Positions 1,387-51,753 are shown, counted from the stretch's first letter. The stretch: DNA of 64,000 bases from Candidatus Omnitrophota bacterium (GCA_028716165.1 JAQUQI010000002.1:10431-74430), one strand, 5' to 3'. Made by a program: numbers and translations. The notes: generated by a model from the letters alone, not told the origin.

Positions 1387-1394
<8 letters not shown>
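243..1394 (+). CDS. SpoIID/LytB-family amidase-enhancer domain protein with an N-terminal signal peptide
   Basis: Hydrophobic N-terminus MNIKTKQICFLLILCLMAPLNALSAG. SpoIID-type motifs FHATCGGHTE and GHGVGMCQWGA are present. Confidence 0.8.
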
Positions 1395-3605
<2,211 letters not shown>

Positions 3606-3718
3606 TTTTTTATGTCTATTTAACCCGGAAAGCCAAGGCCGGACACGCGTAATAGGCAAAACCCTTGTCATGGCGCGTAACAATATGCCCGCAGAAAAGG
3701 GCAGAAGGAGAAAAAATA

Positions 3719-4111: not shown

Positions 4112-6334
4112 TTGTTTGACATGCAGAAAAACTTGAAATGGAGATTATTACTGGTTGTAGCCGTAATGGGTTTGGCGTTATGGAGCCTGTGGCCGCCGTT
4201 AAGTATCAAGGGCGCCGATGGCCGTATTGCGCGTGAGGGCAGGATAAATCTGGGTCTTGACTTGCAGGGAGGCATGCATCTTGTCCTGAAAGTGGATATA
4301 TCAAAACTTTCCGCCAAAGATGCTGAAGGCGCGCCCGAAAGAGCGTTGGAGATAATAAGGAACAGAATAGACCAGTTTGGGGTTAAAGAGGTATCAATAC
4401 AGCGGCAGGGCAAGGATGAGATAGTTATTCAATTGCCCGGCATTACCGACAGACAGCGCGCTCTGGAACTTATCGGTAAGACCGCCCTTTTGGAATTCAG
4501 GCTTGTTTCTTCTGATACCGAAAAGATTAAGTCAGCGCTCGCAGGCAATGTTCCTGACGGGTATGAACTTTTGGCCACGGAAGACGGCGAGAATGTGCTT
4601 GTAGAAAAACATGCCTCTGTCATCGGTTCAGACCTCGCCAACGCGATCGTGAATTTTGACCAGTCCGCTTTCAACCAACCCGTTGTTTCCATAAATTTTA
4701 CAAAAGACGGCGCTTCCAAGTTTGCCAATGTAACAGGCGAGAATGTCGGCAAAAGGCTTGCCATTGTCCTTGACGGCAATATTAAATCAGCACCTGTTAT
4801 AAGGGAGAGGATACCGAGCGGAGATGGTGTTATACAGGGCAGGTTTACGCCGGAAGAGGCCAATGACCTTGCGATAATTCTTCGCGCCGGAGCTCTACCC
4901 GCCCCTGTTTCCATAGAAGAAGAAAGGACCGTAGGCCCGTTATTGGGAAAAGATTCAGTCCGGTCAGGTATAAAGGCCGTAGGTATTGGAGCCCTTTTAG
5001 TTTGTATTTTTATGATATTATATTATATGCTGGCAGGCACGATTGCTGTGACCGCTCTTATCTGTAATTTATTTATTATACTGGGGGTTATGGGATACTT
5101 TCATTTTACTCTTACTTTACCCGGTATAGCAGGTCTTATATTGACTTTGGGCATGGCTGTTGACGCCAATGTATTGATCTATGAGAGAATGCGCGAGGAA
5201 TTAAAGACAGGGAAGACCATACGGGCCGCTATATCAACGGGATATAGCAAGGCCTTCAGCGCTATTATTGATTCAAACCTTACGACATTGATAGCCGCGG
5301 CGCTTTTATTCCAATTCGGCACAGGGCCCATCAGGGGATTTGCTATGACCCTTACCATAGGTATATTTGCCAGCTTATTTACCGCGCTTGTTGTTACGCG
5401 CGTTATCTTTGACCTGCTTCTGCTTTCTCCCGGTTTTAAGAAGCTCCATATGATGAATTTGATACACGATACCAAAATAGATTTTACCGGCAAGAGAAGG
5501 ATTTGCTACGGGGCGTCAATTTTACTTATTGTAATAAGCTTCGGTATTTTTACCTTCAGAGGCGAGAAAAATTACGGCGTGGATTTTTCCGGAGGCACAT
5601 TACAGCAGTTGAAGTTTGAGAAACCTGTTGATATAGCCCGGATAAGAGAATCGGTCAACAAGGCAGGCATAGGGGGCGTGAATATACAGGGCCTTGCCGG
5701 CGACCGGGAGATATTGATACGCACGGCGCAGGATTCCAGCGATGCTGTTGAATCTGCTTTGAAAGAGCCGATGAAAGATAATCAATTTGAATTTATGAGG
5801 ATAGAAAAAGTAGGCCCTTCCATAGGCAGGCTTTTACGAAAAAATGCCATTAAAGCGCTTTTGTTCGGCATGCTGGGTATTATGATATACGTAGGCCTGC
5901 GGTTTAAGCATTGGGAATACGGCCTCGCCGGCATAGTAGCGCTTTTCCATGATGTTTTTATTGTTATAGGGGCCATGGCGCTTACCGGCAGGGAATTTGA
6001 TATTACCGTGGTCGCCGCTATTTTAACTGTAGCGGGTTATTCTATCAACGATACCGTAGTTATATTTGACCGTATTCGGGAAAATATGAGGCTTATGCGC
6101 AGGATCAAATTTAGTGAGCTTATAAATTTAAGCATAAACCAGACATTGAGCAGGACCGTATTTACAACCCTTACAACCCTGTTTACGGTTATTGCCGTAT
6201 TTTTATGGGGCGGAATAGTGCTTAATAATTTCGCTTTTTGCCTGATAGTCGGTTTTATATCCGGCATATATTCAACAATTTTTATAGCAAGTCCGATGAT
6301 ACTGCTATGGCGCAGGAACAGGCAGTCTTTTTAG
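4112..6334 (+). CDS. secDF: Protein-export membrane protein SecDF (fused SecD-SecF)
   Basis: 740 aa. N-terminal TM helix, a large periplasmic domain, and two blocks of six TM helices carrying SecD/SecF signature regions (GLDLQGG, GTIAV...LTLPGIAGLILTLGMAVDANVLI). Confidence 0.9.
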   Translation: MFDMQKNLKWRLLLVVAVMGLALWSLWPPLSIKGADGRIAREGRINLGLDLQGGMHLVLKVDISKLSAKDAEGAPERALEIIRNRIDQFGVKEVSIQRQGKDEIVIQLPGITDRQRALELIGKTALLEFRLVSSDTEKIKSALAGNVPDGYELLATEDGENVLVEKHASVIGSDLANAIVNFDQSAFNQPVVSINFTKDGASKFANVTGENVGKRLAIVLDGNIKSAPVIRERIPSGDGVIQGRFTPEEANDLAIILRAGALPAPVSIEEERTVGPLLGKDSVRSGIKAVGIGALLVCIFMILYYMLAGTIAVTALICNLFIILGVMGYFHFTLTLPGIAGLILTLGMAVDANVLIYERMREELKTGKTIRAAISTGYSKAFSAIIDSNLTTLIAAALLFQFGTGPIRGFAMTLTIGIFASLFTALVVTRVIFDLLLLSPGFKKLHMMNLIHDTKIDFTGKRRICYGASILLIVISFGIFTFRGEKNYGVDFSGGTLQQLKFEKPVDIARIRESVNKAGIGGVNIQGLAGDREILIRTAQDSSDAVESALKEPMKDNQFEFMRIEKVGPSIGRLLRKNAIKALLFGMLGIMIYVGLRFKHWEYGLAGIVALFHDVFIVIGAMALTGREFDITVVAAILTVAGYSINDTVVIFDRIRENMRLMRRIKFSELINLSINQTLSRTVFTTLTTLFTVIAVFLWGGIVLNNFAFCLIVGFISGIYSTIFIASPMILLWRRNRQSF

Positions 6335-7296: not shown

Positions 7297-9042
7297 ATGA
7301 AAAAAAACTGGAACATCACTTATCAGGATACCGCTCTCCAGCAATCCCTTACAAGAGATATGCCTATATCTTCTCTTATGGCACGGATACTTATAAACCG
7401 CGGCATAAGTTCGCCGCGCCAGGCCGAACTGTTTCTCAATCCGAGCCTGCTTAACCTGCATGATCCTATGCTGATGAAAGGCATGGATAGATGTGTTTTT
7501 AGGATAAGAGAAGCCCTCCGCCGCAAGGAAAAGATACTTGTTTACGGCGATTATGACGTTGACGGCATATCCGCCGCGGCCCTCATGGTCCTTGTTCTTA
7601 AGCATATCGGAGCTGATGTAGATTCCTATCTTCCAAGCAGGATTAATATAGGATACGGTTTAAATGAAAAGTCGGTACGCGTTATTCGTGACAAGAAACC
7701 TAAGCTTTTAATAACTGTTGATTGCGGTATCGGCGCCCTGGAGCAGATAGAGGAATTGAAGGGTTTGGGCATAGACGTAATAGTTACGGACCACCATACG
7801 CCCGATGAAAGGCTTCCTGCCGCCGATGCTATAATAAACCCGCTCCAAAATGGGTGCGCCTATCCTGAAAAAAACTTGTCGGGCGTCGGCATTGTTTTTA
7901 AATTGGCGTCGGCATTATTAGGCGCCGGAGATGATTGGTTGCATCAACAGCTTGATCTTGTCTGCCTGGGTACTATTGCCGATGTGGTGCCTCTTACAGG
8001 AGAGAACAGGATACTGGTAAAAAACGGCCTGGACCAGTTGGCCAACACAAAAAAATGCGGATTAAAAGCGCTTATTGAACAGTCCGGGCTAAAGGCAAGG
8101 GCCATAACATCTTATCATGTAGGTTTTATTTTGGGGCCAAGGATAAACGCCTCGGGCAGGGTCTCGGACCCCGGCGCGTCATTGGACCTTTTTCTCGCCG
8201 AAGACGCTAACCGGGCAGAAGCGCTTGCAAAAGCCCTCTGTGCCGAAAACAGGAACAGGCAGAGGATGGAAGAGTCTGTTTTAAGACAGGCGGTAACCAG
8301 GGTTGAGAACAGCATGGATTTTAAACGCCAGCGGGTTATTGTATTGGATGATGCTTCCTGGCATAGAGGGGTCATAGGTATAGTTGCCTCACGGCTGGTT
8401 GACAGGTTTTACCGGCCTGCTGTTATTATTTCTATTGACGGCGATGAAGGCCGGGGCTCGTGCCGTTCCATAAGAGGCTTTAATCTTTTTGATGCTTTGA
8501 GCGGTTGCGCCGGGCATCTGAAAAACTTTGGCGGGCACGGTTATGCCGCCGGTTTTACGATAGCAAAAGACAAGCTTGGCGAATTCAGGCGGAGCATAAA
8601 TGATATGGCAGATAAGATGCTTATGCCCCAGGATCTCGTGCCCAGCATAAAGGTGGATGCCGAGATACCTATATCGGACTTAAACCGTAAGACGCTTGAA
8701 GAACTTGACAGGCTTAATCCTTTTGGTGTCGGCAATCCTAAGCCTGTATTTGTTTCCAGACAGCTTATGATACGTAATATGCCGCAGGCCTTACGCAAGT
8801 CAACGATAAAGATGTGGGTCACCGACGGTAAGGTTACAGCCGAAGCCATTGGCTTTAATATGGCCCAGCGGGTTCCGGATCTTTTGCGCCAAAGCAAGAT
8901 AGATATTGTGTATACCTGCGAATTAGACACTTATAAAGGCATAACATCCATCAAGCTCCAGCTCAAAGATATACGCGCTCTCCCCTTGCCCCTGATTGAA
9001 GAAGCCCGGAATCTTGTCACAGATACGGTACTTTCCGCTTAA
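7297..9042 (+). CDS. recJ: Single-stranded-DNA-specific exonuclease RecJ
   Basis: DHH motifs (VYGDYDVDGISAAA, VIVTDHHTPDE), a DHHA1 region (GGHGYAAGFTI) and a C-terminal OB region. The start could be the ATG at 7273 or at 7297; I chose 7297 because of the upstream AAGGAG. Confidence 0.85.
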   Translation: MKKNWNITYQDTALQQSLTRDMPISSLMARILINRGISSPRQAELFLNPSLLNLHDPMLMKGMDRCVFRIREALRRKEKILVYGDYDVDGISAAALMVLVLKHIGADVDSYLPSRINIGYGLNEKSVRVIRDKKPKLLITVDCGIGALEQIEELKGLGIDVIVTDHHTPDERLPAADAIINPLQNGCAYPEKNLSGVGIVFKLASALLGAGDDWLHQQLDLVCLGTIADVVPLTGENRILVKNGLDQLANTKKCGLKALIEQSGLKARAITSYHVGFILGPRINASGRVSDPGASLDLFLAEDANRAEALAKALCAENRNRQRMEESVLRQAVTRVENSMDFKRQRVIVLDDASWHRGVIGIVASRLVDRFYRPAVIISIDGDEGRGSCRSIRGFNLFDALSGCAGHLKNFGGHGYAAGFTIAKDKLGEFRRSINDMADKMLMPQDLVPSIKVDAEIPISDLNRKTLEELDRLNPFGVGNPKPVFVSRQLMIRNMPQALRKSTIKMWVTDGKVTAEAIGFNMAQRVPDLLRQSKIDIVYTCELDTYKGITSIKLQLKDIRALPLPLIEEARNLVTDTVLSA

Positions 9043-40711: not shown

Positions 40712-41296
40712 ATGCGCGTAGGAATATTCGGAGGCACATTCAACCCTGTGCATAAAGGCCATATTCTTTTGGCCCAACAGGCAAAAAAGATACTGAAACT
40801 GGATAAGGTGATCTTCGTTCCCGCGCGTGTCCCGCCCCACAAGGCCTCTGCAGGTATAATAGATTCCGCAAAGAGATTCCATATGATAAAACTTGCCATC
40901 GTCGGCAAAAGCGGATTCAAGATTTCTCGTTACGAGCTTGGCAAGAAAGGCAAAGCGTATTCAGTTGATACAGTCAGGCATTTCAGGAAAATATTGCCTA
41001 AAAAAACCAGGCTATATTTTTTAGCCGGAGCTGACATTATCAATAATGTTACATCCTGGAAGGAATCTAAAAAACTATTCGCGCTTTGTGATTTTATTAT
41101 TCTTAGCAGGAGCGGATTCGGGCTTGAAGCAAAAGGGGCGGGGTTTAAGATGTTGGATGCTAAAACATTGGATGTGTCATCAACTATGGTTCGCGGCCTG
41201 CTTCAAGAAAACAAGCCTGTCACAGGCCTTGTTCCAAGGCTTGTGGAGGATTATATTATTCGTAAAGGTTTATATAGGAAGGCCTCCGCCCTGTAA
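40712..41296 (+). CDS. nadD: Nicotinate-nucleotide adenylyltransferase
   Basis: MRVGIFGGTFNPVHKGHI, the (H/T)xGH nucleotidyltransferase motif. Confidence 0.85.
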   Translation: MRVGIFGGTFNPVHKGHILLAQQAKKILKLDKVIFVPARVPPHKASAGIIDSAKRFHMIKLAIVGKSGFKISRYELGKKGKAYSVDTVRHFRKILPKKTRLYFLAGADIINNVTSWKESKKLFALCDFIILSRSGFGLEAKGAGFKMLDAKTLDVSSTMVRGLLQENKPVTGLVPRLVEDYIIRKGLYRKASAL

Positions 41297-41462
41297 ACGT
41301 ATTATAATAACTCCCATTTTATCGTTGCCTGCCCAATATTATCAACTTTTTTAAGTTTTAAGATTTCGCGCGGTTTATTAACTTTTTTTAAAAAAACAAC
41401 AATTACTCTTTATCATATTTATTAATAATGATAAAATATAACATTATAACGCTGGAGACCGC

Positions 41463-42686
41463 ATGACATTGCGTAATTTAAAATTAAGTATATTTCTCGC
41501 GGCCAAAGACATGCTCAATAATCTTGGCTCGCTTGTATTTGTATCAGCGGCGCTGGGTTTCTTATTTGCCAATGTATTATTTTCAAGGTTTATGCTCTAT
41601 GGCTTTGAAAAGAGCATAGGAAGCCTTATACCGAAGGTTAGCGGTAATATGTATGCCACGCCCTTGAGAGGGCAATCCTATATATTTGACACGCAGAGGG
41701 TCCTGTCTTCAATAGGCTTAAATACTACGATAGGCGAGATGAGCCCTGTGCTTGAGATGCCTTGTGTTTTGGAATATAAGGGTTCCAGGATAGTTACCAT
41801 GGCCTGGGGGCTTGAATTCGGCGAGCAGGTCATGGATTTACAAAAACATATCGTTGAAGGCAGTTATTTTTCAGGCCCTGATTCAGAAGAGATAATATTG
41901 GGTAAGATACTGAAAAGGCGTTTCAAATTAAAAATACCCGTTACTGAAGAAATAACGCTTGGAGATTCCGCCAAAGGTATATTTATCAAGGAATATAATA
42001 TAGATAAATTCAATAAAGAGGTCTATAAAGATAAGTACGTGAAGATAACAGGAGTTGCCGATTTCAGAGATTATATAGCCAATAACAGCATTTTCATACC
42101 CTTGCAGACTTTAAGAAACGTTACTACGCTTCAAAACCGTTCATCAAGCGTGTTCATACGGCTCAAAGATGATATGAAAATTGACGAAGCAGGGGTCAAA
42201 CAGTATAAGCCTTATAATCTTGACGTGGAGTTAAAACACTGGAAAGACCGTGATGACTACGGAACTGACGACCTTGTCTACGGCTTTAACCTTATAAGCA
42301 TTATAACCTTTGGCGTGAGTATCATTTGCGCGGCTATATTAGTCGCGTTTATAGTTTTCTATAATACGCAAAAAAAACGAAGGACAACAGGCATACTCCG
42401 GGCCATAGGCATAAAGGGAAGGATATTTTTAACGTTCTTTATTATAGAAGGCGTTCTTTTCGCTGTGATAGGAGTTGTCACGGGGACGGCCCTTTATTAT
42501 TTACTGCAAACGTATCTTAAGGCGCATCCCATAATAATGCCTTTTGGAGATCTGTATCCTATGTTTGAGATAAACAGCTATATTTATGCTACCGCGCTTT
42601 TTTTAGTTGTGTCTTTTATGGCCAGCGTTTATTACGCGGTAAAAAGCGGTAAAGAAAATATAATAAAAGTAATAAGAGGCGATTAA
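41463..42686 (+). CDS. ABC transporter permease, FtsX/MacB/LolCE family
   Basis: TM1, a ~230 aa extracytoplasmic domain, and three C-terminal TM helices. The stop overlaps the start of the ATPase gene. GC noticeably lower than core genes. Confidence 0.75.
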   Translation: MTLRNLKLSIFLAAKDMLNNLGSLVFVSAALGFLFANVLFSRFMLYGFEKSIGSLIPKVSGNMYATPLRGQSYIFDTQRVLSSIGLNTTIGEMSPVLEMPCVLEYKGSRIVTMAWGLEFGEQVMDLQKHIVEGSYFSGPDSEEIILGKILKRRFKLKIPVTEEITLGDSAKGIFIKEYNIDKFNKEVYKDKYVKITGVADFRDYIANNSIFIPLQTLRNVTTLQNRSSSVFIRLKDDMKIDEAGVKQYKPYNLDVELKHWKDRDDYGTDDLVYGFNLISIITFGVSIICAAILVAFIVFYNTQKKRRTTGILRAIGIKGRIFLTFFIIEGVLFAVIGVVTGTALYYLLQTYLKAHPIIMPFGDLYPMFEINSYIYATALFLVVSFMASVYYAVKSGKENIIKVIRGD

Positions 42687-43393
42687 TGGTTAAAAAAGGG
42701 CCCAATTCCAAAAACAAGGTTATAATAAGCATAAAGAATCTGAAGAAAGACTATCATCTCGGTAATACCGTTGTCCAGGCGTTAAAAGACGTTAATCTTG
42801 AGATAAAAAGCGGCGAGTTTTCAATATTATTCGGCCCCTCGGGCAGCGGCAAAACCACGCTTTTAAACTTGTTAGGCCTTATAGATGTGCCTACCTGCGG
42901 CACGATTGTGCTGGACGGCCACGACACCGTTTCGCTTAATCGTATCCGGCGGGCGGAATTCAGGCTGAATAATATAGGCTTTATTTTTCAGAAATATTAT
43001 CTCCTTGATGAACTCACGGCGCTTGAAAATGTATTTTTGCCCGCTATTGCCAAGGAAGGGTATTCATCCCAGCTTTTGGCAAAGGCAAAGAGCATGCTTG
43101 AACTTGTCGGATTGAAGGAAAGGATGAGGCACAGGCCCGCCTATCTTTCAGAAGGCGAAAAACAGAGGGTAGCGGTTGCCAGAAGCCTCATTAACAGCCC
43201 CGCCATACTTCTCTGCGATGAGCCTACCGCCAGCCTTGACGCTGATAACGGGAGGGTGATACTTGACCTTTTGGCAAAGATAAACAAAGAAAGTTCTGCT
43301 ACCGTATTTCTTGTTACTCACGATGACCGCCAGCTCAAATACGGTGATAAGGTGATACACATCGCCGACGGGATGGTGCAAAAAGGGGAATAG
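42686..43393 (+). CDS. ABC transporter ATP-binding protein (MacB/LolD-like)
   Basis: Walker A (GPSGSGKTT), signature motif (LSEGEKQRV) and Walker B (ILLCDEPT). Confidence 0.85.
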   Translation: MVKKGPNSKNKVIISIKNLKKDYHLGNTVVQALKDVNLEIKSGEFSILFGPSGSGKTTLLNLLGLIDVPTCGTIVLDGHDTVSLNRIRRAEFRLNNIGFIFQKYYLLDELTALENVFLPAIAKEGYSSQLLAKAKSMLELVGLKERMRHRPAYLSEGEKQRVAVARSLINSPAILLCDEPTASLDADNGRVILDLLAKINKESSATVFLVTHDDRQLKYGDKVIHIADGMVQKGE

Positions 43394-43396
43394 GCT

Positions 43397-44629
43397 TTGG
43401 ATGATAAGAGGGTTGTAATTACCGGAATCGGATTAGTTACCCCAATTGGCATAGGCAAGGATATTTTTTGGGAAAATTGCTTGTCCGGAAAATCCAATGT
43501 TAAAAAAATAACCGCTTTTGATGTCAGCGAATATAACTGCAAGATAGCCTCCACGATAGATAGTTTTGACCCTGCCCGATATATGGATAAAATAATCGCA
43601 AGGCGCTCCGATAAATTCGCGCAGTTCGCCATTGCCGCCGCTTCTATGGCCATGGAAGACAGCCGTTTAAGCAATCCGGACCCAAAATACACAGGTGTTT
43701 GCATAGGCACAGGGCTGGGGGGCATGGTGTTCGCGGAAACGCAGATTGTTAATATCATAAAAGACGGAAATGGCGCGGTCAATCCTGTTTCTATCCCTAA
43801 GATTATGCCTAACTCTGTGGCAAACCAGATTGCCATTGTTCATAATGCCCAGGGCCCGAATCTTACTGTTTGCACAGCATGTTCGTCAGGCACGCATAGC
43901 ATAGGCCAGGCGTTTGATATTATCCGTCAGGGCAGAGCCAAGATTATGATTTCAGGAGGAGCGGATTCGCCTGTGATGAGATATAATTTTTTAGGTTTTG
44001 ATAAATTAAGCGTTATGAGCAGAAGAAATGACAGCCCGGAATCCGCCTCAAGGCCTTTTGATAAAGACAGAGACGGTTTTGTCATGGGAGAAGGGGCCGC
44101 TGTCCTGATACTTGAATCTTTAGACCATGCGCTCGCACGAAAGGCCGATATATATGCCGAGATCAAAGGTTATTCCATGACGTCAGGCGCCTATCATATT
44201 GTTATGCCGCGTCCTGATGCCAGCGATATAGCAAGGGCCATGAGAATATGCTTAAATGAGTCGCTTGTTATGCCAAAAGACGTTGATTATATAAACGCCC
44301 ACGGCACGGCTACTATTGCCAATGACAAGGCGGAAGCCAAAGCGATAGCCAAGATCTTTGGAGAACATGCCCAGCGCATACCGGTAAGTTCTACCAAATC
44401 CATGATAGGCCATACCTTAGGGGCGGCAGGGGCTATTGAAGCGGCCGTGTGCGCGTTGACGATATCGTCTGGTAAAATACACCCTACGGTGAATCTTGAA
44501 ACACCCGACGAGGATTGCAAGCTTAATCATGTTACGAAGAAACATTTTAAGCACGATGTAAGCATTGCTCTTTCAAATTCATTTGGGTTTGGCAACAATA
44601 ACGCGTGCCTGCTTTTTTCAAAAGTATAA
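43397..44629 (+). CDS. Beta-ketoacyl-[ACP] synthase, FabF/KAS-II-like elongating ketosynthase
   Basis: Active-site Cys (CTACSSG), His (NAHGTAT) and His (IGHTLGAAG), the C-H-H triad of elongating KSs. A 3-nt gap after the ABC ATPase stop suggests an operon. There are no fabD/fabG/fabH neighbours. Confidence 0.85.
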   Translation: MDDKRVVITGIGLVTPIGIGKDIFWENCLSGKSNVKKITAFDVSEYNCKIASTIDSFDPARYMDKIIARRSDKFAQFAIAAASMAMEDSRLSNPDPKYTGVCIGTGLGGMVFAETQIVNIIKDGNGAVNPVSIPKIMPNSVANQIAIVHNAQGPNLTVCTACSSGTHSIGQAFDIIRQGRAKIMISGGADSPVMRYNFLGFDKLSVMSRRNDSPESASRPFDKDRDGFVMGEGAAVLILESLDHALARKADIYAEIKGYSMTSGAYHIVMPRPDASDIARAMRICLNESLVMPKDVDYINAHGTATIANDKAEAKAIAKIFGEHAQRIPVSSTKSMIGHTLGAAGAIEAAVCALTISSGKIHPTVNLETPDEDCKLNHVTKKHFKHDVSIALSNSFGFGNNNACLLFSKV

Positions 44630-44649
44630 GAGAAAGGACACTATTTTTA

Positions 44650-44913
44650 ATGGATAATAGTAAGAAATTTTCAAAATGCGAAATAGCCGAAGAATTAAAA
44701 AAAATTATTGCAGATATAGTAAATGTAGAAAAAGAAGCGATTGATTTTACAACAAAATTGTTGGAAGATCTTGGAATGGATTCTTTTGCTGTAGCCGAGA
44801 CTATGTTTTTAATCCAAGAAAAATTCGGAGTCACCATAGCTCAAGAAGATATACTTAAAGTAGATACTTTTAATAGTCTTGTAGAAACGTTGGATAAGAT
44901 TTTAAATGGTTGA
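44650..44913 (+). CDS. Acyl carrier protein
   Basis: 87 aa acidic protein with the phosphopantetheine-attachment motif LGMDSFAVAE (an Asp-Ser-Phe variant of DSL). Start at the ATG at 44650 after AAAGGA. Very AT-rich. Confidence 0.7.
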   Translation: MDNSKKFSKCEIAEELKKIIADIVNVEKEAIDFTTKLLEDLGMDSFAVAETMFLIQEKFGVTIAQEDILKVDTFNSLVETLDKILNG

Positions 44914-44957
44914 GGGGTATAGAATATTATTAGTCAATGTGAGGCAACCATAAGATG

Positions 44958-44986
44958 CCAGGGTGAGGCCCTGGTATTTTGTTTTT
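44958..44986 (+). terminator. Putative intrinsic terminator or attenuator between the ACP gene and the HMGR-like gene
   Basis: Stem CCAGGG (44958-44963), loop TGAGG, stem CCCTGG (44969-44974), followed by TATTTTGTTTTT. Confidence 0.35.
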
Positions 44987-45006
44987 AATTTATATTGGAG
45001 GTACCA

Positions 45007-46200
45007 ATGAACGCTGCAATAGATAATAATAAAAAAAGTTGTAATGATAATATGTTGAGTAATTTTTCTGAATTGAAAAAAATTCAAGTAAGACGTGACC
45101 AGCTACAGAAAAATACAAATATGGTTTTATCAGAGATTACAAAAACACATTTTGATTTATCACATGTTAGCAATTATATTGAAAACATGATAGGTGTATG
45201 CAATGTTCCTTTAGGAGTAGCGGGTCCGATACAAATAAATGGAGATTTTGCTAATGGTAAATTCTATGTTCCATTTGCAACTACACAATCAACTCTAATA
45301 CGTTCTTATGATAGAGGTATGAAGGTTCTTACTGCATCAGGTGGAGTCAATACAAAGATCATTAAAGATGAAATTCACATTTCACCAGTTTTCTGCTTTT
45401 CGAATCTGAAAGAAGCAAAAAATTTCTATAATTGGTCAATTGAGAATTTTGAACTGCTTAAAAAAGAAGCGGAAAGTGTTACTACCCATGGCAAGTTATT
45501 ACGTATAAAACCTGTAATATTAGGAAGAAAGGTTATATTAACGTTATATTTTTCAACGCAGGATGCTATGGGGTTGAATATGATTGTTATAGCAGCGGAT
45601 AAGTTGTGCCGCTATATTTCTAAAAATATACAAGTCAGAAAGTATTATTTACGTTCAAATTATTCAGCCGACAAGAAACCGTCATATTTGAATTTTATTG
45701 AAGGTTATGGAAAAACAGTTGTTGTCGAAGCTACTATAGCAAAACAAATTATAGAAGGTTATCTACAGACATCCGCAAAAGAACTTTATGATTTTTGGAT
45801 TACAAGTGTTATCTGCGGTATTCAATCTGGATTGATGGGTTTGAACGCTCATTTTGCTAATGGTCTATCTGCTATTTTTTTAGCTTGCGGACAAGACATT
45901 GCCAGTGTTGTTAATGCTTGCTTAGGCATTGGAACTATTGAAATTGAAGATAATGGAGATTTGTATATTTCTGGGCGCATATCGTCATTACCTATAGGTA
46001 CTGTAGGTGGTGCTACCGATTTAGGCACACAAAAAGAATGTTTGCAAATTATGGATTGTTTTGGTAACGGAAAAACTAATCGTTTGGCTGAGATTATATC
46101 AGCTACTTTAGTTGCAGGAGAGATTTCTATTGTTTCAGCAATTGCGACTGGAAATTTTGCTTCGGCACATATCAATGCTAGGTTAAAAAAGGGAAAATAA
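45007..46200 (+). CDS. Soluble class-I HMG-CoA-reductase-fold protein with non-canonical active-site residues
   Basis: Class-I HMGR blocks: ENMIGVCNVPLGVAGP, TQDAMGLNMI, ACGQD, PIGTVGGAT, and a C-terminal AGEISIVSAIATG. Strong GGAGG SD. However TTQS replaces the catalytic TTEG, and GN replaces the catalytic GH. Confidence 0.75.
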   Translation: MNAAIDNNKKSCNDNMLSNFSELKKIQVRRDQLQKNTNMVLSEITKTHFDLSHVSNYIENMIGVCNVPLGVAGPIQINGDFANGKFYVPFATTQSTLIRSYDRGMKVLTASGGVNTKIIKDEIHISPVFCFSNLKEAKNFYNWSIENFELLKKEAESVTTHGKLLRIKPVILGRKVILTLYFSTQDAMGLNMIVIAADKLCRYISKNIQVRKYYLRSNYSADKKPSYLNFIEGYGKTVVVEATIAKQIIEGYLQTSAKELYDFWITSVICGIQSGLMGLNAHFANGLSAIFLACGQDIASVVNACLGIGTIEIEDNGDLYISGRISSLPIGTVGGATDLGTQKECLQIMDCFGNGKTNRLAEIISATLVAGEISIVSAIATGNFASAHINARLKKGK

Positions 46201-46203
46201 GAC

Positions 46204-47481
46204 GTGATTAAATCTAGTGCTGAAGTTATAATTGTTGGTTCTGGAGCAGCCGGCTCAACTATTGCTAAGGAACTGGCCGGTCGCGGTAGAAAAATTATTA
46301 TAATTGAAAAAGGTAAATTTGCAGGTTATCTTGGCAACGAGATTAGGGCCAGCGCGTACTACGAAGGTTCTCCTTTGCTCGTTAGGTCTAAGAGCGGTGT
46401 GATGTTCCATTATACAAAAAATCTTGGTGGTAGCACAGTTTTTAGTTGTGGAAATGCTGTTAGAGGTTCACTAGATATATTTTTACGGTTTGGTATAGAT
46501 TTACGTCGCGAGCTTGCGGAGACTGAAGAGGAATTATCGGTAATGCCTGTAGATAAAAAATTAATTGGCCAGAAAGGTACCAAAGATTTTTATGATGCAG
46601 CTATTAATTTGGGTTATAAGATTGATTATATGCCGAAATTTATGAAAAAAGGGATGTGTTCTCTGTGTGGCAAATGCGTGCTAGGGTGTCCAAATAATGC
46701 TAGATGGACTGCTGTTGATTATGTTGATTTTGCTATTGGGAAAGGTGCTCTTGTTGAGCACGCCGTTGTAGAAAAGGTTATTATAAAAAATAATAAAGCC
46801 ATTGGTGTTTTAGCTAAACAGGGAAAAAAACAGGTAACTATTTATGCTGATAAAATCGTGCTTGCGGCAGGAGGGCTTAATTCACCCGTGATACTACAAA
46901 AGTCTGGCTTATCTGCTGGTAAGAAATTGTTTTGTGATTTGTTCAATGTAACATATGCTGTGTCATTGAAAGATGGAATGTTTCGTGATTTAAGTATGTC
47001 TTTAGTTGATATGGAATTTTTTAAAAATGATGGTTTTATAATATCTCCATTTATGGATCCTATTATTTTATTTCTTATCATTTTTAATAAGTTTTTGCCA
47101 TTTTATTTATTGAAGTATAAAAATGTTGTTGGCATAGAAGTTAAGATTAAGGATGATATGATTGGATCGGTTTCATCGGATGGGCGAATCCAAAAAATAG
47201 TTACTGCCGATGATTCAAAAAAAATTAGTAAGGGTGTAGAAATTGCTAAGGATATTTTAAACCATATGCCTATTGATAAAAGGACGATTAATACAACTAT
47301 ATTGCGAGGCGCGCATCCTGGCGGTACTTCTGCTATTGGGGAAGTTGTTGATTGTAATTTGCAAACAGGGGTGAAAGGGTTATATGTATGTGATGCTAGT
47401 GTATTACCAGAAGCGTTAGGCCTGCCACCAATAATAACGCTAATTGCTTTATCTAAATGGTTTGTTAAAACTCAATTTTAA
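46204..47481 (+). CDS. GMC-family-like FAD-dependent oxidoreductase with an inserted CX2CX2CX3CP ferredoxin-type motif
   Basis: N-terminal FAD Rossmann (IIVGSGAAGSTIA...IIIEKG). C-terminal GMC-type block (RGAHPGGTSAIGEVVDCNLQTGVKGLYVCDASVLP). Cys cluster CSLCGKCVLGCP at aa 152-163. GTG start 3 nt after the HMGR-like stop. Confidence 0.6.
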   Translation: MIKSSAEVIIVGSGAAGSTIAKELAGRGRKIIIIEKGKFAGYLGNEIRASAYYEGSPLLVRSKSGVMFHYTKNLGGSTVFSCGNAVRGSLDIFLRFGIDLRRELAETEEELSVMPVDKKLIGQKGTKDFYDAAINLGYKIDYMPKFMKKGMCSLCGKCVLGCPNNARWTAVDYVDFAIGKGALVEHAVVEKVIIKNNKAIGVLAKQGKKQVTIYADKIVLAAGGLNSPVILQKSGLSAGKKLFCDLFNVTYAVSLKDGMFRDLSMSLVDMEFFKNDGFIISPFMDPIILFLIIFNKFLPFYLLKYKNVVGIEVKIKDDMIGSVSSDGRIQKIVTADDSKKISKGVEIAKDILNHMPIDKRTINTTILRGAHPGGTSAIGEVVDCNLQTGVKGLYVCDASVLPEALGLPPIITLIALSKWFVKTQF

Positions 47482-47485
47482 AATT

Positions 47486-49537
47486 ATGCCATATTTTGCA
47501 ATATCAGCTATTACAGCGTCATTGATTAATATCATTATCGGCACATTTGTTCTATTAAAAGACAGAAGATGCCTGCAGAATAGGACATATTCAGGTGTTT
47601 CATTTGCTGTCGCAATATGGTGTCTTGGATTAGCTAATATGGTTAATTCGACTAACAGCTGCGAAGCTTTTTTTTGGGTAAGATTTTTACATATAGGAGT
47701 TTTTTTAATCCCCCCACTTTATTTTAATTTTATTTGTTCTTTGTTGCATATTGTTGACTATAAAAAAAGTTTACTTATTTCCATGTATATTATTTCAACT
47801 TGTTTTATTTTGTTTAATTATGGGACACGTTTATTAATTTCTGATGTTGTTCCAAAATATAGTTTTAATTATTATGCTACTGCTGGATCTGTGTATTTTT
47901 TATATATATTGTATTTAACTGGTTTTATTATATATTCAATTATTCTTATTATGAAACATTATAAGAGTTTTTCTGCTTTACGAAAAATGCAGTTCAAGTA
48001 TGTAATAGTTGCTTCTATCGTAGCGTTTATAGGGGGGTCAGATACTTTTTTACCAATGTTTGATTTGCCAGTCATGATTAATGGTATTTTTTTATTGCCA
48101 CTTTTTACGCTTATGGCTGCTTATGTTATTGTTAAGCATAGATTTTTGGACATTGAAATCATAATCCGCGAGACGGCAATATTCGCGGGTATATTCGGTT
48201 TTTCAATAGGCCTGTTTATGCTGGCGATTATAGCGGGCGAACAATTCCTCAAGCCTTATATAGGCGATAACCGTTGGATCGTCCCGGCATTATCACTCTT
48301 ACTTGTCACGTTTGTTATCCGCCCAATTGAAAAAATTATATACAATGTTGCCGGTAGGATATTATTTCGCAGAAAGTATGAATATCAAAAGACCCTTCAG
48401 GACGCCGCTGAAGGCATGTCTAAGATCCGTGACCCAAAGAAATTGTTGAGCCTGATAGTGCATATAATATCAGCTAAGCTCAAGCTTGTTAATACTGCTG
48501 TTTTTCTCTTTGAAAGCGGATCCGCTTCGTACGTTCTGAAGGCTTCAAGAGGGGATATGGGGAGCTCTCCGGCAAGCTTAAAGCCCGAAAACGCTCTGAT
48601 AACATGGCTTTGCGAGAAGAAAAAACCGCTTGGCCTTGATGATGTTCAGAAATGGATAAACAATTTTAACCAGAAATACATGCCCGGCGTGCTTAAGTCC
48701 GATCTGGCCCAGATAAGGGACACTATGCTTAATCAACGCGCGGCCTTGAGCGTGCCTTGTTTTTTTAGAAACGAGCTTTTAGGCGTGCTTATACTTGGAG
48801 AGAAAAAAAACGGAGATTTTTTTTCCCAGGATGATATAGATTTATTCAGCGCTCTATCCAATGAAGCGGCCATTGCTCTCAAAAATTCACAACTCTATTT
48901 TGAGATAGACAGAAGGGCTTTTGAGCTTGAGAACCTTTACAAGAGAGAGCACAGGCTGTTTATGCATTCATCCGTGGCGTTTGCCGCGGCAATAGATGCC
49001 AGAGATCCTTATACCCACGGCCATTCGCAAAGGGTCACAAATATAAGCCTGGTGATACTTGATTTTATGGGAGCTATGGATGAGATAGATAAAGATGCTT
49101 TCTTCAGGCATAGGCTGCAAATAACAGGGGTCTTGCATGATATAGGAAAGATAGGCGTACCCGATGATATATTGCATAAACCGGCGCAGCTTACGCCCGA
49201 AGAGAGAAAAGAGATAGAGAAACACCCCGTATTGGGGGCGGAAATTGTATCTCATATTGCCGGGCTAAGAAACCTTATCGGAGGCATCAAATATCATCAT
49301 GAAAGATATGACGGCAAAGGCTACCCCGAAGGGCTTAAGTCGGATGAGATACCTCTGATGGCAAGGATTATTTCCGTTGCCGACACTTATGATGCCATGA
49401 CAAGCGACAGGCCTTATAGGAAAGGCCTCCCGTTTTTGACGGCAAGAGACGAAATACAAAGAAACGCGTCGGCGCAGTTTGACCCTTATGTGGTAGCGGC
49501 TTTTTTAAAAGCATTTGAACAGGGTAAGATAGAATAA
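47486..49537 (+). CDS. Membrane sensor HD-GYP phosphodiesterase (7TM receptor-like domain, GAF, HD-GYP)
   Basis: Polytopic N-terminus, a GAF-like middle region, and an HD-GYP domain (HGHSQR, LHDIGKIG, HHERYDGKGYPEGL). Roughly the first 225 codons are strikingly AT-rich and the remainder is at host GC. Confidence 0.8.
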   Translation: MPYFAISAITASLINIIIGTFVLLKDRRCLQNRTYSGVSFAVAIWCLGLANMVNSTNSCEAFFWVRFLHIGVFLIPPLYFNFICSLLHIVDYKKSLLISMYIISTCFILFNYGTRLLISDVVPKYSFNYYATAGSVYFLYILYLTGFIIYSIILIMKHYKSFSALRKMQFKYVIVASIVAFIGGSDTFLPMFDLPVMINGIFLLPLFTLMAAYVIVKHRFLDIEIIIRETAIFAGIFGFSIGLFMLAIIAGEQFLKPYIGDNRWIVPALSLLLVTFVIRPIEKIIYNVAGRILFRRKYEYQKTLQDAAEGMSKIRDPKKLLSLIVHIISAKLKLVNTAVFLFESGSASYVLKASRGDMGSSPASLKPENALITWLCEKKKPLGLDDVQKWINNFNQKYMPGVLKSDLAQIRDTMLNQRAALSVPCFFRNELLGVLILGEKKNGDFFSQDDIDLFSALSNEAAIALKNSQLYFEIDRRAFELENLYKREHRLFMHSSVAFAAAIDARDPYTHGHSQRVTNISLVILDFMGAMDEIDKDAFFRHRLQITGVLHDIGKIGVPDDILHKPAQLTPEERKEIEKHPVLGAEIVSHIAGLRNLIGGIKYHHERYDGKGYPEGLKSDEIPLMARIISVADTYDAMTSDRPYRKGLPFLTARDEIQRNASAQFDPYVVAAFLKAFEQGKIE

Positions 49538-49603: not shown

Positions 49604-51724
49604 ATGTGTTATTACAAGCTGCATTATATAGCAGGTTCCGTGTTTACGCTTCTTATTACCCTTCTGCTGGGAAGCCTGATCTATTTTAGAGGCAGAAGGG
49701 GCGAGGTTGTGAGAAGTTACTACCTGTTAATGCTTTCCATCGCGGAATTTTCATTGTGCACTTTATTGTTCTGCTTGTTTAATGATAAAGACTATACCCT
49801 GTTTTTCGCCAGGGCCTCTTATATAGGGGTTTCCTTTGTGCCCATATTTTATTTTCATTTTATTATAAAACTTATGGGGTTGACAGAAAAGATCAAAAGG
49901 GTCCTGTCTGCCGGTTATATTCTGGCGGTTATTTTTTCCGGGTTGAGTTTTTCACCGTTAATCGTTAAAAGTATATCGTTCAAGCTGGGCCTGAATTTTA
50001 ATGATCCCGGCGTGCTTCATCCCGTATTTATGTTGTTTTTTGCCGGGTTCCCCGCTTACGCGCATTATCTCATGGGCAGGTCTATCGGCAGGTTAAGCGA
50101 TATAGGCAAACGCCAAATGAAGTATGTCACGATAGCCGGCATATGCGGCCTAAGCGGCGGCAGTTTAATGTTTTTTACGGTTTACGGTGTATCTATTCCC
50201 ATAATAGGGCCTATGGCCTTATACTTTGTCGCTCTTGCCAATCTCTTTGTTGCTATAGCAACGTATGTGGTACGCCTTATGGGTGTTGAGGTCATAAGGA
50301 GAAGGACGCTGATATTTTCAATTCTCTATGGAGCGAGTGTCGGCAGTTTTGTAGCGTTTGTTTTTATCCTGCAAAGACATTTATCAGCTTCTTTTAATGT
50401 GAACAGATGGATACTGCCTGTGGCCGCGGTTTTTATTTTGACAGTTTTTATAAGGCCGTTAGAAAAATTTCTTGCCGGATTTACCGACGCGTTTTTATAC
50501 CAGCGCGGATACGACTATATGCTGGTTTTAAGAAACGTCGCCAAAGGTATGACGCTTATAACCGATACAAGAAAACTCCTGAACCTTATGGTAAGGTTTA
50601 TATCAAAAGAAGTAAGGATAACCGGCAGTTCGGCTTATATTTTCAATAAAACGCTGAATTCATATATCAGGGAAGTCCGCAGAGGTTTTAAAGGCCAGCA
50701 GACCCTGGAAAGAGTGGATGCCGACAACCCTCTTGTTAAATGGCTTATGGAAAAAAGAGAGCCTATAAGTTATGAAAGTGTTTTAAGCTGGATCCAGGGC
50801 GACAGGATTTTTCCGCAGAGGATTATTCTTAAAAAGACTCTTGACCATATCCGGGTGACCATGGAAAAGACCGGTGCCGTATTATGCGTTCCGAGTTTTT
50901 TAAGAGGCCAGATGATCGGTTTTATAGTGCTTGGCCCTAAGCTATCGGGCAATATCTATACGAGCGATGATTTTTCACTTTTATCCACCCTGGCCAATAA
51001 TGCGGCTATTGCCTTTGAGAACGCGCGCATGTATGAAGAGCTTACGGAAAGAATATATAAATTAGACGCTTTATATAAAGAAGAGCACGCGTTGTTTTTG
51101 GACGCGGCCTCGGCATTTAGCTTTGCTATTGATTCCAAGGACGGGTATACCTATGCCCATACCCGCAGATTAAGCAATTACGCGATGGCTACGGCCAAGG
51201 AACTTGAAAAACTTTTGCCGTATATTAACTTTAATGATTCTTTTTACGAGACGCTTCATATCGCGTCACTTTTACATGATGTGGGCAAGATAGGTATACC
51301 GGACAGGATACTAAAAAAACGTTCGGCCCTGACAGACGAAGAAAAGGAAAAATTCAAAGAGCATGTTACTATAGGCCAAAATATCTTAAAGCCCATTAAA
51401 GAAATAGGAGACAGCTTTGATGTTATACGGCACCATCATGAAAACTTTGACGGCACAGGCTATCCCGACGGATTAAAAGGCAATGCTATACCCATGGCGT
51501 CCCGCATTATAGCGGTTTGCAATGGCTTTGACATTATGACTTCAACCTATCTGGAAGGCGAGCCTGTTACCAGACAGCAGGCCATAGAAAAGCTTAAGGA
51601 AAAAAGCGGGAGCTTTTTTGACCCCGTGATAGTTGACGCTTTTATTGCCGCTTATGCAAACAAGGAATATGCCGGATTTTTTCTTGATATACCCACTGAT
51701 AGCGTTAAAAACCGGACATTTTAA
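49604..51724 (+). CDS. Membrane sensor HD-GYP phosphodiesterase, paralog
   Basis: Same architecture as the upstream gene (AHTRRL, LHDVGKIG, HHHENFDGTGYPDGL). GC is uniform and host-like. Confidence 0.8.
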   Translation: MCYYKLHYIAGSVFTLLITLLLGSLIYFRGRRGEVVRSYYLLMLSIAEFSLCTLLFCLFNDKDYTLFFARASYIGVSFVPIFYFHFIIKLMGLTEKIKRVLSAGYILAVIFSGLSFSPLIVKSISFKLGLNFNDPGVLHPVFMLFFAGFPAYAHYLMGRSIGRLSDIGKRQMKYVTIAGICGLSGGSLMFFTVYGVSIPIIGPMALYFVALANLFVAIATYVVRLMGVEVIRRRTLIFSILYGASVGSFVAFVFILQRHLSASFNVNRWILPVAAVFILTVFIRPLEKFLAGFTDAFLYQRGYDYMLVLRNVAKGMTLITDTRKLLNLMVRFISKEVRITGSSAYIFNKTLNSYIREVRRGFKGQQTLERVDADNPLVKWLMEKREPISYESVLSWIQGDRIFPQRIILKKTLDHIRVTMEKTGAVLCVPSFLRGQMIGFIVLGPKLSGNIYTSDDFSLLSTLANNAAIAFENARMYEELTERIYKLDALYKEEHALFLDAASAFSFAIDSKDGYTYAHTRRLSNYAMATAKELEKLLPYINFNDSFYETLHIASLLHDVGKIGIPDRILKKRSALTDEEKEKFKEHVTIGQNILKPIKEIGDSFDVIRHHHENFDGTGYPDGLKGNAIPMASRIIAVCNGFDIMTSTYLEGEPVTRQQAIEKLKEKSGSFFDPVIVDAFIAAYANKEYAGFFLDIPTDSVKNRTF

Positions 51725-51753
51725 TTTTGGCTTGATATGGAAAGCTAATGCCC

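Follow-up and report, generated by a model that had tools for sequence, protein, structure and literature searches.

An AT-rich block in the Candidatus Omnitrophota window (the whole 64-kb stretch of DNA analysed here) is probably an allele of a hypervariable cassette locus in a clade of Omnitrophota, in which a set of enzymes and a membrane sensor form a putative product-receptor pair, its alleles being putative specificity types. As judged by comparison with related loci, the insert represents one allele of a hypervariable locus rather than an island gained at a previously unoccupied site. The junctions are fixed, different alleles occur in near-identical strains, one cassette is common to diverged backbones, GC is low in all alleles and the cargo follows an enzymatic theme. 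The features of the locus are as follows.

41463..42686, + strand, FtsX/LolCE-like ABC permease (PF02687; weak LolCE similarity; GC3 0.42), conserved left backbone
42686..43393, + strand, ABC ATPase, LolD/DevA/MacB-like (PF00005; GC3 0.53), conserved backbone
43397..44629, + strand, FabF-type beta-ketoacyl-ACP synthase, KS (TIGR03150), left recombination anchor of native composition
44630..44649, no strand, left junction by alignment; homology to relatives L012 and L013 is gone a few bases past the KS stop codon (TAA, 44627-44629)
44650..44913, + strand, acyl carrier protein, ACP, 87 aa, with DSF phosphopantetheine site (PF00550; GC3 0.20), allele-specific
44950..44982, + strand, hairpin and U-run in the ACP-HMGR spacer, terminator- or attenuator-like
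45007..46200, + strand, HMGR-fold (class I-like) predicted NAD(P)H thioester reductase (PF00368; GC3 0.22)
46204..47481, + strand, GMC-family FAD oxidoreductase with CxxCxxCxxxCP motif (PF00732, PF05199; GC3 0.26)
47486..48130, + strand, 7TM sensor module of HD-GYP1 (HisKA_7TM, GPCR-like fold), variable, swapped with the cassette
48125..48150, no strand, right junction by alignment, at the codons for ..AYVI / VKHRFLDIEIIIRETA
48131..49537, + strand, conserved remainder of HD-GYP1: two more TM helices, GAF and HD-GYP (PF01590/PF13492, PF13487), right recombination anchor
49604..51724, + strand, HD-GYP2, a non-variable paralogue with HD-GYP1 architecture, internal control

Base composition and extent of the segment

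GC of the whole window is 44.6%, and 1-kb bins have a mean of 0.446 (sd 0.035) with the lowest value, 0.295, at 47001-48000, the sole dip of such depth across the 64 kb. A two-change-point fit on composition alone placed an island at 44523-48165, and the segment defined by homology (44636-48130) has 33.1% GC, the remainder of the window 45.3% (z = -11.8 relative to same-length windows); inside the segment GC climbs to about 0.40 at 46.0-46.6 kb. GC-normalised tetranucleotide usage of 45001-48000 correlated at r = 0.50, as compared with 0.898 +/- 0.071. Sliding GC, GC3 and tetranucleotide usage thus bear out the AT-rich island at about 44.64-48.16 kb that a preliminary description had proposed. 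The AT-shifted codon choice it noted also stands, with GC3 of 0.20-0.26 in the cassette genes against 0.483 +/- 0.030 (minimum 0.420) in the 47 reference genes starting outside 41-49 kb, but "almost no G/C-ending codons" is too strong a wording. The ABC ATPase and KS genes (GC3 0.53 and 0.46) are native in composition and not intermediate as had been thought; left of the cassette a slight lowering is seen only in the FtsX gene (GC 0.39) and in the spacer between nadD and FtsX.

An assembly chimera was ruled out by two independent assemblies, a Logan contig (L001) identical at 100% over 42059-49322, crossing both edges, and a JGI contig (L002) identical at 100% across the left edge.

Same slot in relatives

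Syntenic loci of relatives keep the backbone at approximately 81% DNA identity; their inserts, AT-rich and differing from one another, occupy the interval from the KS stop codon to a single fixed position in HD-GYP1. DNA homology to relatives ends on the left at 44635 (blastn). The permease and ABC ATPase are respectively 91% and 90% identical in amino acid sequence to those of relatives, and the KS is 89% identical (L012/L013 for permease and KS). On the right, the border was found inside the first HD-GYP gene, as described previously, at the end of the HD-GYP1 7TM domain, where GC3 within the gene changes from 0.18-0.28 until about 48.19 kb to 0.40-0.51 thereafter. This junction falls on the identical residue position in ten loci, and the predicted HD-GYP1 structure has its pLDDT minimum there, at residues 222-224.

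Loci L012 and L013 have flanks which are 99.5-99.8% identical, yet one contains ACP and a thioesterase and the other HMGR and ACP; their 7TM domains are 26% identical while the other 468 residues of the same protein are 100% identical. Among the window, L012 and L013, the 7TM modules are 26-30% identical, as against 90-100% for other HD-GYP1 residues (90% between the window and the other two). Alignment of HD-GYP1 showed zero invariant columns in residues 1-215 and dense invariant columns from R219 on, and across 30 orthologues 7TM identity was uncorrelated with C-terminal identity (Spearman 0.045). Conversely, L094 and L096 have one cassette in common at 92-98% DNA identity on backbones of only 66-88%. 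L094 and L095, another closely related pair with discrete alleles, are 97.7% identical in DNA and 99% in protein past the junction. HD-GYP1 is an intact gene of unchanged architecture in all alleles; the 7TM regions of L098 and L099 are frameshifted.

No empty site was found, each relative examined holding another insert at the same junctions. Gene sets at this position differ between relatives and low GC recurs in the slot, in every host examined, so that of the contrary case named in the preliminary description (the same gene set with the same composition in all relatives) only the composition was found. Among genes neighbouring the locus in relatives are a PMT gene in L012/L013, itself AT-rich (GC 0.345, GC3 0.30), MGDG synthase, lipid A acyltransferase and GT2 genes in L004, and a WbuX-like amidotransferase gene in L098.

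A classical genomic island, inserted in a single horizontal event from a low-GC donor and bearing cargo that has no relation to the sensor gene interrupted or rebuilt by it, would be expected to show the strong compositional and tetranucleotide deviation seen here, and the nearest HMGR homologues do sit on low-GC contigs (L003, L010). This explanation is already contradicted and we regard it as very improbable. As had been noted, signs of mobility are absent: there was no integrase or transposase among Pfam matches, a tRNA search found no tRNA, and no direct or other repeats were found at the segment boundaries. Relatives each carry another AT-rich insert between this same pair of junctions, and HD-GYP1 is not disrupted in any allele. 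A single old, partly ameliorated acquisition, as offered earlier, is likewise untenable, since the slot holds different, equally AT-rich inserts even where the flanks are 99.5-99.8% identical. The data support a segment history separate from that of the flanks and arrival without site-specific mobility machinery.

Replacement of cassettes by homologous recombination fits because mobility machinery is missing and the right edge lies inside HD-GYP1. Of the earlier suggestion of recombination through HD-GYP paralogues, this part stands but the paralogue route does not: HD-GYP1 and HD-GYP2 (33% identity) have DNA matches of only 32-38 nt, at catalytic motifs, and none close to the junction, so a crossover by this paralogy was rejected. 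The crossovers are located in orthologous flanks, at the 3' end of KS on one side and in the part of HD-GYP1 beyond the 7TM module on the other. Conserved "anchor" DNA was also considered and dropped, as junction-side sequence is no more conserved than the backbone (76-79% identity on the left; one 90% window on the right).

HD-GYP2 provides an internal control, being 86% identical to its counterparts in relatives and 100% identical between L012 and L013. Weak selection on, or low expression of, accessory genes could in principle let AT-biased mutation lower GC in place without transfer, and the AT-rich PMT gene of relatives and the low GC of the cassette in every host agree with this. We consider it highly unlikely, as composition changes partway through a single gene, at the place where similarity to relatives is lost, the equivalent 7TM region of HD-GYP2 is native (GC3 0.495), and cassette and backbone similarities are decoupled, with one cassette more similar than its backbone. 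The low GC of the alleles probably stems from a long independent history as a separately circulating pool.

Cassette cargo and sensor

The cassette ACP is only 30-36% identical to the ACPs in the same slot of L012 and L013, and ACP identity spans 30-40% in the comparison as a whole. The hairpin that follows it (-36.4 kcal/mol, z = -4.5) is the top terminator-like site across 41.2-52 kb; a known riboswitch or other RNA in the spacer was dropped from consideration, as Rfam gave no match at E <= 1 there or elsewhere in 41.0-52.5 kb.

The HMGR-fold protein matches PF00368 (E = 3e-107, 359 bits) and its nearest solved structure is the archaeal HMGR 6HR7 (E = 1e-87). Alignment to 6HR7 and 8ECG showed that it keeps the ENMIG, DKKP, GQD, GTVGG and C-terminal His motifs, and with them every class I catalytic and HMG-contacting motif. 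On these grounds it could be taken for a true mevalonate-pathway HMG-CoA reductase which merely adjoins fatty-acid genes, a proposal we find barely credible. Its score is under the TIGR00533 equivalog cut-off (341.9 vs 441.8 bits), no other mevalonate genes were found among the ORFs examined in the window and related loci, and the gene is regularly accompanied by KS, ACP and 7TM sensor genes in related loci. Moreover, in near-identical or related strains its slot is filled by a thioesterase, an acyl-ACP reductase or an SDR reductase, a substitution incompatible with an essential role in isoprenoid synthesis. Members of this widespread bacterial clade (1,833 homologues) also occur fused to PilZ, REC or AfsA domains; a literature search for PilZ combined with HMG-CoA reductase found nothing relevant.

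The third cargo gene had been called a flavo-FeS oxidoreductase. The flavoprotein part was confirmed as GMC-family (PF00732, 7e-20, and PF05199, 1e-9, the N- and C-terminal GMC domains with FAD-binding fold). As to the Fe-S part, the ferredoxin-type CSLCGKCVLGCP motif is present, yet the protein has no Fer4 match at E <= 0.001, while its L010 homologue matches Fer4 at 1.5e-6.

The description of the cargo as an unusual enzyme combination proved an understatement, since across loci it consists of interchangeable acyl-thioester release, off-loading or tailoring enzymes: HMGR-fold, AAR-like, SDR-TR, ALDH/GMC or 4HBT. Most alleles have an ACP alongside one or two thioester enzymes and the 7TM module; the exception to the theme is L099, with KS and ACP only and without a release enzyme. 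Cargo type was tried as a predictor of 7TM similarity, and the trend was too weak to be used as evidence (30-39% identity for HMGR-type pairs, 21-36% for other pairs).

HD-GYP1 matches PF13487 (E = 7e-36) and has the HD and GYP motifs, and its 7TM-GAF-HD-GYP architecture joins a membrane sensor to a c-di-GMP phosphodiesterase in a single polypeptide. Elsewhere the output differs, with HK in place of HD-GYP in L004, L007 and L098, and 7TM-GAF-HK, REC and GAF-HD-GYP are encoded separately in related loci. The HisKA_7TM family has 2,815 representatives at E <= 0.001; the literature found on it comprises domain censuses only, and no known ligand was found.

On the left, the KS exceeds the TIGR03150 cut-off (527.5 vs 493.75 bits) and shows the ACSSG Cys as well as the two His motifs. 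Since it scores as an ordinary FabF, its role could be a housekeeping one. A metagenome scan with the KS protein returned generic FabF loci only (L014-L093, 42-49% identity), since its back-translated peptides were too conserved to single out this locus. The FtsX/LolCE-like permease is a possible exporter of the cassette product.

Proposed explanation and comparison with known systems

We propose that a conserved frame of FtsX/ABC exporter, KS in some lineages, GAF-HD-GYP part of HD-GYP1 and HD-GYP2 would receive whole cassettes, between the KS position and the GAF-HD-GYP part, by homologous recombination. The left crossover would lie just past the KS gene, or past the ABC gene in lineages without KS, and the right crossover at a hinge of fixed position, where the 7TM module meets the remainder of HD-GYP1. 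The cargo enzymes would determine which head group, alcohol, aldehyde or acid, is given to the acyl product built on the ACP. The adjoining ABC system may export this product, and the GPCR-like 7TM module inherited along with the enzymes would be its putative receptor. Binding would then be relayed by GAF to HD-GYP and regulate the hydrolysis of c-di-GMP, and the alleles would be specificity types, pherotype-like. Enzymes and sensor would move together because they are a matched product-receptor pair; their co-inheritance could also reflect mere adjacency.

O-antigen and capsule loci exchange low-GC, highly divergent gene sets between conserved flanks without mobility genes, and the same replacement pattern is seen at this locus. 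It might be a variable envelope-lipid locus of similar kind, in which a cell-bound lipid derived from a fatty alcohol, aldehyde or acid is exported to the envelope by the FtsX/ABC system (DevCA/LolCDE-like), with phages, predators or hosts selecting for diversity and the 7TM module varying as a surface-exposed part or lipid monitor and not as an intercellular receptor. The ABC ATPase scores on both the DevA (heterocyst glycolipid exporter) and LolD models, each under cut-off, and glycosyltransferase or lipid genes are near the locus in L012/L013, L004 and L098. We judge this unlikely, if clearly the more serious of the alternatives raised here. The window cassette contains no glycosyltransferases and its cargo is not sugar genes. 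By itself the envelope-lipid explanation accounts neither for an exchange border that coincides with the sensor/transducer hinge of a c-di-GMP enzyme, a domain boundary inside a signalling protein, nor for the fusion of HMGR-family proteins to PilZ, REC or AfsA.

The matched-pair reading has precedents. In Staphylococcus agr, the hypervariable agrB-agrD-agrC segment covers the signal-making genes and the sensor part of the receptor, with a conserved cytoplasmic transmitter (PMC10482373), and in Bacillus comQXP the N-terminal TM domain of ComP is variable, its cytoplasmic domain conserved, and pherotype groups result (PMC4008528). Here too the variable block spans biosynthetic genes and membrane sensor while the cytoplasmic receptor part is conserved; the block is bordered within the receptor gene, near-identical strains differ by discrete alleles, and diverged backbones have alleles in common. 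In contrast to these systems, no peptide precursor or AgrB-, AgrD-, ComQ- or ComX-like gene is present among the cassette ORFs (ACP, HMGR-fold, GMC), the cargo is of acyl-thioester type, an HD-GYP phosphodiesterase, joined to the sensor in one protein, replaces the histidine kinase as output (the three HK loci apart), the sensor is a HisKA_7TM GPCR-like bundle with putative signal-receptor specificity, and the phylum is Omnitrophota.

In DSF systems the RpfF thioesterase frees a fatty-acid signal from acyl-ACP, the multi-TM input of RpfC senses it and the HD-GYP protein RpfG lowers c-di-GMP (PMC4504480); between rpf-1 and rpf-2 of S. maltophilia, rpfF and the TM input domain of rpfC differ jointly, with recombination breakpoints within rpf genes (PMC4517397). 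The proposed logic, an acyl-ACP-derived product (as KS/ACP and cargo suggest), a TM sensor and HD-GYP, resembles that of Xanthomonas, Burkholderia and Stenotrophomonas. The Omnitrophota locus differs in that no crotonase/ECH (RpfF-type) domain was found there, its place being taken by the release enzymes listed above; in this window sensor and HD-GYP are one polypeptide, the alleles are many and not two, and KS/ACP are dedicated and adjacent to an ABC exporter. Relative to class I HMG-CoA reductase, the cassette protein has the same fold and catalytic motifs, and differs in its equivalog score, genomic context, fused relatives and interchangeability with unrelated thioester enzymes.

Significance

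An AT-rich island that ends within a gene can signal an allelic specificity cassette and not a foreign insertion. Strain-specific signal/receptor polymorphism is known mainly from the peptide pheromones of cultivated Firmicutes. A pherotype-like evolutionary signature, a swapped block edged at the sensor/transducer boundary of a receptor gene, is now seen in an uncultured phylum, where it is combined with chemistry of acyl-thioester type and with a c-di-GMP output. If the functional reading is true, the locus would provide the first candidate ligand class for the large, uncharacterised HisKA_7TM family, a non-mevalonate role for a widespread HMGR-fold clade, and naturally matched enzyme-receptor pairs suited to heterologous expression. 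More tentatively, and as something we hold to be possible rather than probable, Omnitrophota may communicate in small-molecule "dialects", a kind of signalling system hitherto unrecognised, in which a 7TM receptor and head-group enzymes are exchanged as one cassette, and the spread of the HMGR-fold/7TM pairing would possibly extend this to Nitrospirota, Elusimicrobiota and Myxococcota. In that case strains within a species would differ in the molecules that they produce and perceive, and c-di-GMP would be the intracellular output (HD-GYP, with PilZ-fused enzymes as feedback).

Composition and gene content of the AT-rich block

The window as a whole has 44.6% GC (1-kb windows: mean 0.446, sd 0.035) and contains a single strong dip, at 44.5-48.5 kb, where the 1-kb minimum was 0.295. 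A fit to composition only placed the low-GC segment at 44523-48165; the segment defined by homology, 44636-48130, has 33.1% GC vs 45.3% outside it (z = -11.8 relative to windows of the same length). GC-normalised tetranucleotide usage of the block also deviated (r = 0.50 vs 0.898 ± 0.071), and third-position GC (GC3) was 0.20, 0.22 and 0.26 for its ACP, HMGR-fold and GMC oxidoreductase genes, compared with 0.483 ± 0.030 for 47 genes starting outside 41-49 kb. The AT-rich island that the preliminary description had drawn by eye at 44640-48160 is thus borne out by GC, GC3 and tetranucleotide usage. The flanking ABC and KS genes, which it had called intermediate, are native in composition, and the FtsX gene alone is slightly low (GC 0.39, GC3 0.42, despite 91% protein identity to relatives; GC3 0.50 in the relative L012). 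The nadD-FtsX spacer, in the 41000-42700 region, is likewise mildly AT-shifted (GC 0.34-0.38).

Gene order around the AT-rich block
nadD, + strand
FtsX-like permease, + strand
ABC ATPase, + strand
KS, + strand: FabF-type beta-ketoacyl-ACP synthase, above the TIGR03150 cut-off
Cassette ACP, most likely start 44650, + strand: in the AT-rich block
45007-46200, + strand: HMGR-fold protein, PF00368, below the TIGR00533 cut-off
GMC-family FAD oxidoreductase, + strand: in the AT-rich block, carries the CSLCGKCVLGCP motif
HD-GYP1, first ~215 codons, + strand: in the AT-rich block, HisKA_7TM domain
HD-GYP1, remainder, + strand: native composition, two TM helices, GAF and HD-GYP
HD-GYP2, + strand: adjacent paralogue of the same architecture
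cvpA, + strand

The HMGR-fold protein keeps intact catalytic motifs and most resembles 6HR7, an archaeal class I enzyme. The next enzyme had been read as a flavo-FeS oxidoreductase; it is a flavoprotein of the GMC family that carries the CSLCGKCVLGCP motif. Other genes in the window belong to the core chromosome (SecDF, RecJ, RecG, IleRS, AroA, PBP2, RNase G, obg-proBA, dnaG-rpoD-glnA). The window derives from a Candidatus Omnitrophica MAG, in which P0001 and P0121 match at 100% on a 257-kb NCBI contig. The spacer that separates the ACP stop codon from the start of HMGR (44914-45006; folding energy -36.4 kcal/mol, z = -4.5) contains a 15-pair hairpin at 44950-44982 followed by a U-run. No other site in 11 kb looks as much like a terminator; an Rfam search gave no match, and the hairpin could determine how much ACP is made relative to enzyme, or act as an attenuator.

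As the preliminary description had proposed, the right boundary lies within a gene: GC3 inside HD-GYP1 steps from 0.18-0.28 to 0.40-0.51 at ~48.1-48.2 kb. This shift is not due to the coding of a 7TM domain as such, since the 7TM region of HD-GYP2 has native GC3 (0.495 vs 0.219 in HD-GYP1). Assembly chimerism was ruled out because two independent assemblies match the window at 100% identity across the block edges.

Cassette replacement in close relatives

We compared the window with two syntenic contigs, L012 (the Omnitrophota MAG contig L097) and L013. The backbone is ~81% identical at the DNA level, but alignments end at window position 44635, six bases past the KS stop codon, and restart at 48082-48147, with no alignment between these points except weak HMGR similarity. 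At this position L012 has an ACP, a YbgC/4HBT thioesterase and a different 7TM, and L013 has a thioesterase remnant, a different HMGR (43% identical), an ACP and a third 7TM in an intact 684-aa HD-GYP1 ORF, for which the gene caller's version was too short. Each of the three inserts is rich in AT (0.25-0.39 GC). On either side, the flanks of L012 and L013 share 99.45-99.78% identity.

Identity (%) of modules between the window (W), L012 and L013, in the order W-L012 / W-L013 / L012-L013
FtsX: 91 / 91 / 100
ABC: 90 / 90 / 100
KS: 89 / 89 / 99
ACP: 30 / 36 / 40
7TM: 28 / 30 / 26
Rest of HD-GYP1: 90 / 90 / 100
HD-GYP2: 86 / 86 / 100

Since inserts with 26-40% protein identity occur in strains with 99.5% identical flanks, the alleles long predate the strains in which they reside. 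Their uniformly low GC could stem from a shared low-GC gene pool, or from AT-biased mutation together with a prolonged absence of recombination within the divergent alleles.

Directly 3' of KS, L013 retains a 341-bp remnant (7335-7675) of the L012-type 4HBT thioesterase (L012 3982-4322; 90.6% DNA and 89% protein identity) which is without the N-terminal third and precedes the different HMGR-ACP-7TM set, where the order of ACP and enzyme is opposite to that of the window. This remnant is a footprint of cassette-by-cassette replacement. One sample, JGI 3300037067, holds both the window's own population (L002) and the ~81%-identical L013 with their different cassettes; another, 3300077567, holds L003, with a 76%-identical HMGR allele, together with the related locus L095.

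Exchange of cassettes between backbones

In a set of 30 full-length HD-GYP1 orthologues (435 pairs), 7TM identity did not correlate with identity across the remainder of HD-GYP1 (Spearman 0.045, p = 0.35). Pairs at least 85% identical C-terminally had 7TM domains mostly 21-38% identical, and in some pairs the 7TM was more similar than the backbone. A prediction was then checked on three loci, L094, L095 and L096. L094 and L096 have the same cassette (ACP 82%, HMGR 97%), with the 7TM at 93% and the rest of HD-GYP1 at 78%; DNA identity was 80-88% in KS, 92-98% from the ACP onward, 90% in the junction-spanning window and 66-81% thereafter. L095 and L094 are 99% identical past the junction, with DNA homology beginning within a few bases of it, and their 7TM domains are 26% identical; the L095 cargo is an acyl-ACP-reductase/PigE-N-like enzyme. 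In GTDB species-level relatives the same slot holds an SDR thioester reductase (L101), an ALDH and a GMC enzyme (L100) or an amidotransferase and an AAR-like enzyme (L098). In all ten loci the junction falls at identical residues, between ..AYAI and (I/V)(R/K)HRLMDIE(I/V)IIRETA, and GC3 is 0.17-0.29 in the 7TM vs 0.38-0.51 in the rest of the gene.

These data show a hypervariable locus at which cassettes replace one another between fixed junctions. The cassettes are transferred between backbones as a unit, and their cargo is always an enzyme acting on acyl thioesters or their aldehyde or alcohol products. A search for integrase, transposase, tRNA and flanking repeats at the block found none, in agreement with the preliminary description. 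Of the origins suggested there, horizontal acquisition stands as exchange by recombination and not as a one-off island, given the other AT-rich inserts in relatives; recombination through the HD-GYP paralogues fails, as the DNA of HD-GYP1 and that of HD-GYP2 are not similar around the junction. The simplest mechanism is homologous recombination within orthologous flanks, and the term allelic enzyme-plus-sensor cassette describes the finding better.

In five more distant HMGR-family loci (L004, L005, L007, L008, L010) a 7TM-GAF sensor with HK or HD-GYP output lies directly downstream, and the cassette genes have GC3 below the host flanks. KS itself has lowered GC3 (0.30-0.32) in L094, L096 and L008 and is missing from the slot in some lineages, which suggests nested levels of variability.

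Several further features were observed at these loci. L098 has a second, separate KS-ACP-4HBT-7TM-GAF-HATPase module (22-3754) just upstream of FtsX/ABC, so enzyme-plus-7TM modules also exist with a histidine kinase as output and can be present more than once in a genome. The 7TM-coding region of HD-GYP1 is split across reading frames in L098 (9300-9700) and L099 (1000-1200), owing either to frameshifts that made them pseudogenes or to misassembly of the AT-rich sequence. A second indel, an AT-rich PMT/PMT_2-family glycosyltransferase gene (GC 0.345, GC3 0.30), lies between HD-GYP2 and cvpA in relatives (L012 8633-10144; L013 13669-15180; L098 13520-15376). The window site (51688-51740) is a ~50-nt spacer only and the gene is also absent from L095 and L096; in L098, L100 and L101 the protein is fused to TPR repeats. 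Taxonomic database labels of the TPA assemblies seem at odds with the synteny that these contigs share (L098, L099, L100 and L102 'uncultured Planctomycetia'; L097, L101 and the window MAG Omnitrophota).

Proposed function and comparison with known systems

KS and ACP would assemble an acyl chain, and the cargo enzyme would determine its mode of release: four-electron reductive for the HMGR fold, possibly with re-oxidation by the GMC enzyme, two-electron reductive for the AAR, TR or ALDH types, and hydrolytic for 4HBT. The neighbouring ABC system may export the product, and the co-inherited 7TM module may bind it and, via GAF, control c-di-GMP hydrolysis by HD-GYP. We infer this signalling chain from acyl product through 7TM to HD-GYP from sequence; the main rival reading makes the product an envelope lipid subject to diversifying selection, and not an intercellular signal. 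Among the 120 best matches to the HMGR-fold protein (including P0012-P0114, P0073 and P0098), 22 are fused to PilZ and 5 to REC, with one fusion to AfsA (A-factor synthase hotdog domain) and one to a 4HBT thioesterase. L004, which has two tandem cassettes, encodes a REC-KS fusion (4273-5877). These fusions agree with enzymes that form part of a signalling loop. Some proteins (P0191-P0196 and others) carry two to three tandem HisKA_7TM copies, or an internal one at residues ~260-500, indicating that the module is shuffled within proteins too.

Within the literature library that could be searched, we found no description of the cassette, of PilZ-HMGR fusions or of a HisKA_7TM ligand. The evolutionary signature is the same as that of agr and comQXP, whose variable block comprises the signal genes and the membrane domain of the sensor (PMC10482373, PMC4008528); unlike these, the cassette has no peptide precursor, AgrB or ComQ. 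The proposed signalling logic is that of DSF/Rpf, which combines a lipid derived from acyl-ACP with a TM sensor and an HD-GYP enzyme (PMC4504480), and this likeness extends to the rpf-1/rpf-2 variants of S. maltophilia, with recombination breakpoints inside rpf genes (PMC4517397). However, the RpfF crotonase is absent and other release enzymes are found instead, and in contrast to both systems the sensor has a different fold and forms one protein with the output. The cassette is not a member of either family and is classed as a variant of pherotype-like and DSF-like signalling loci.
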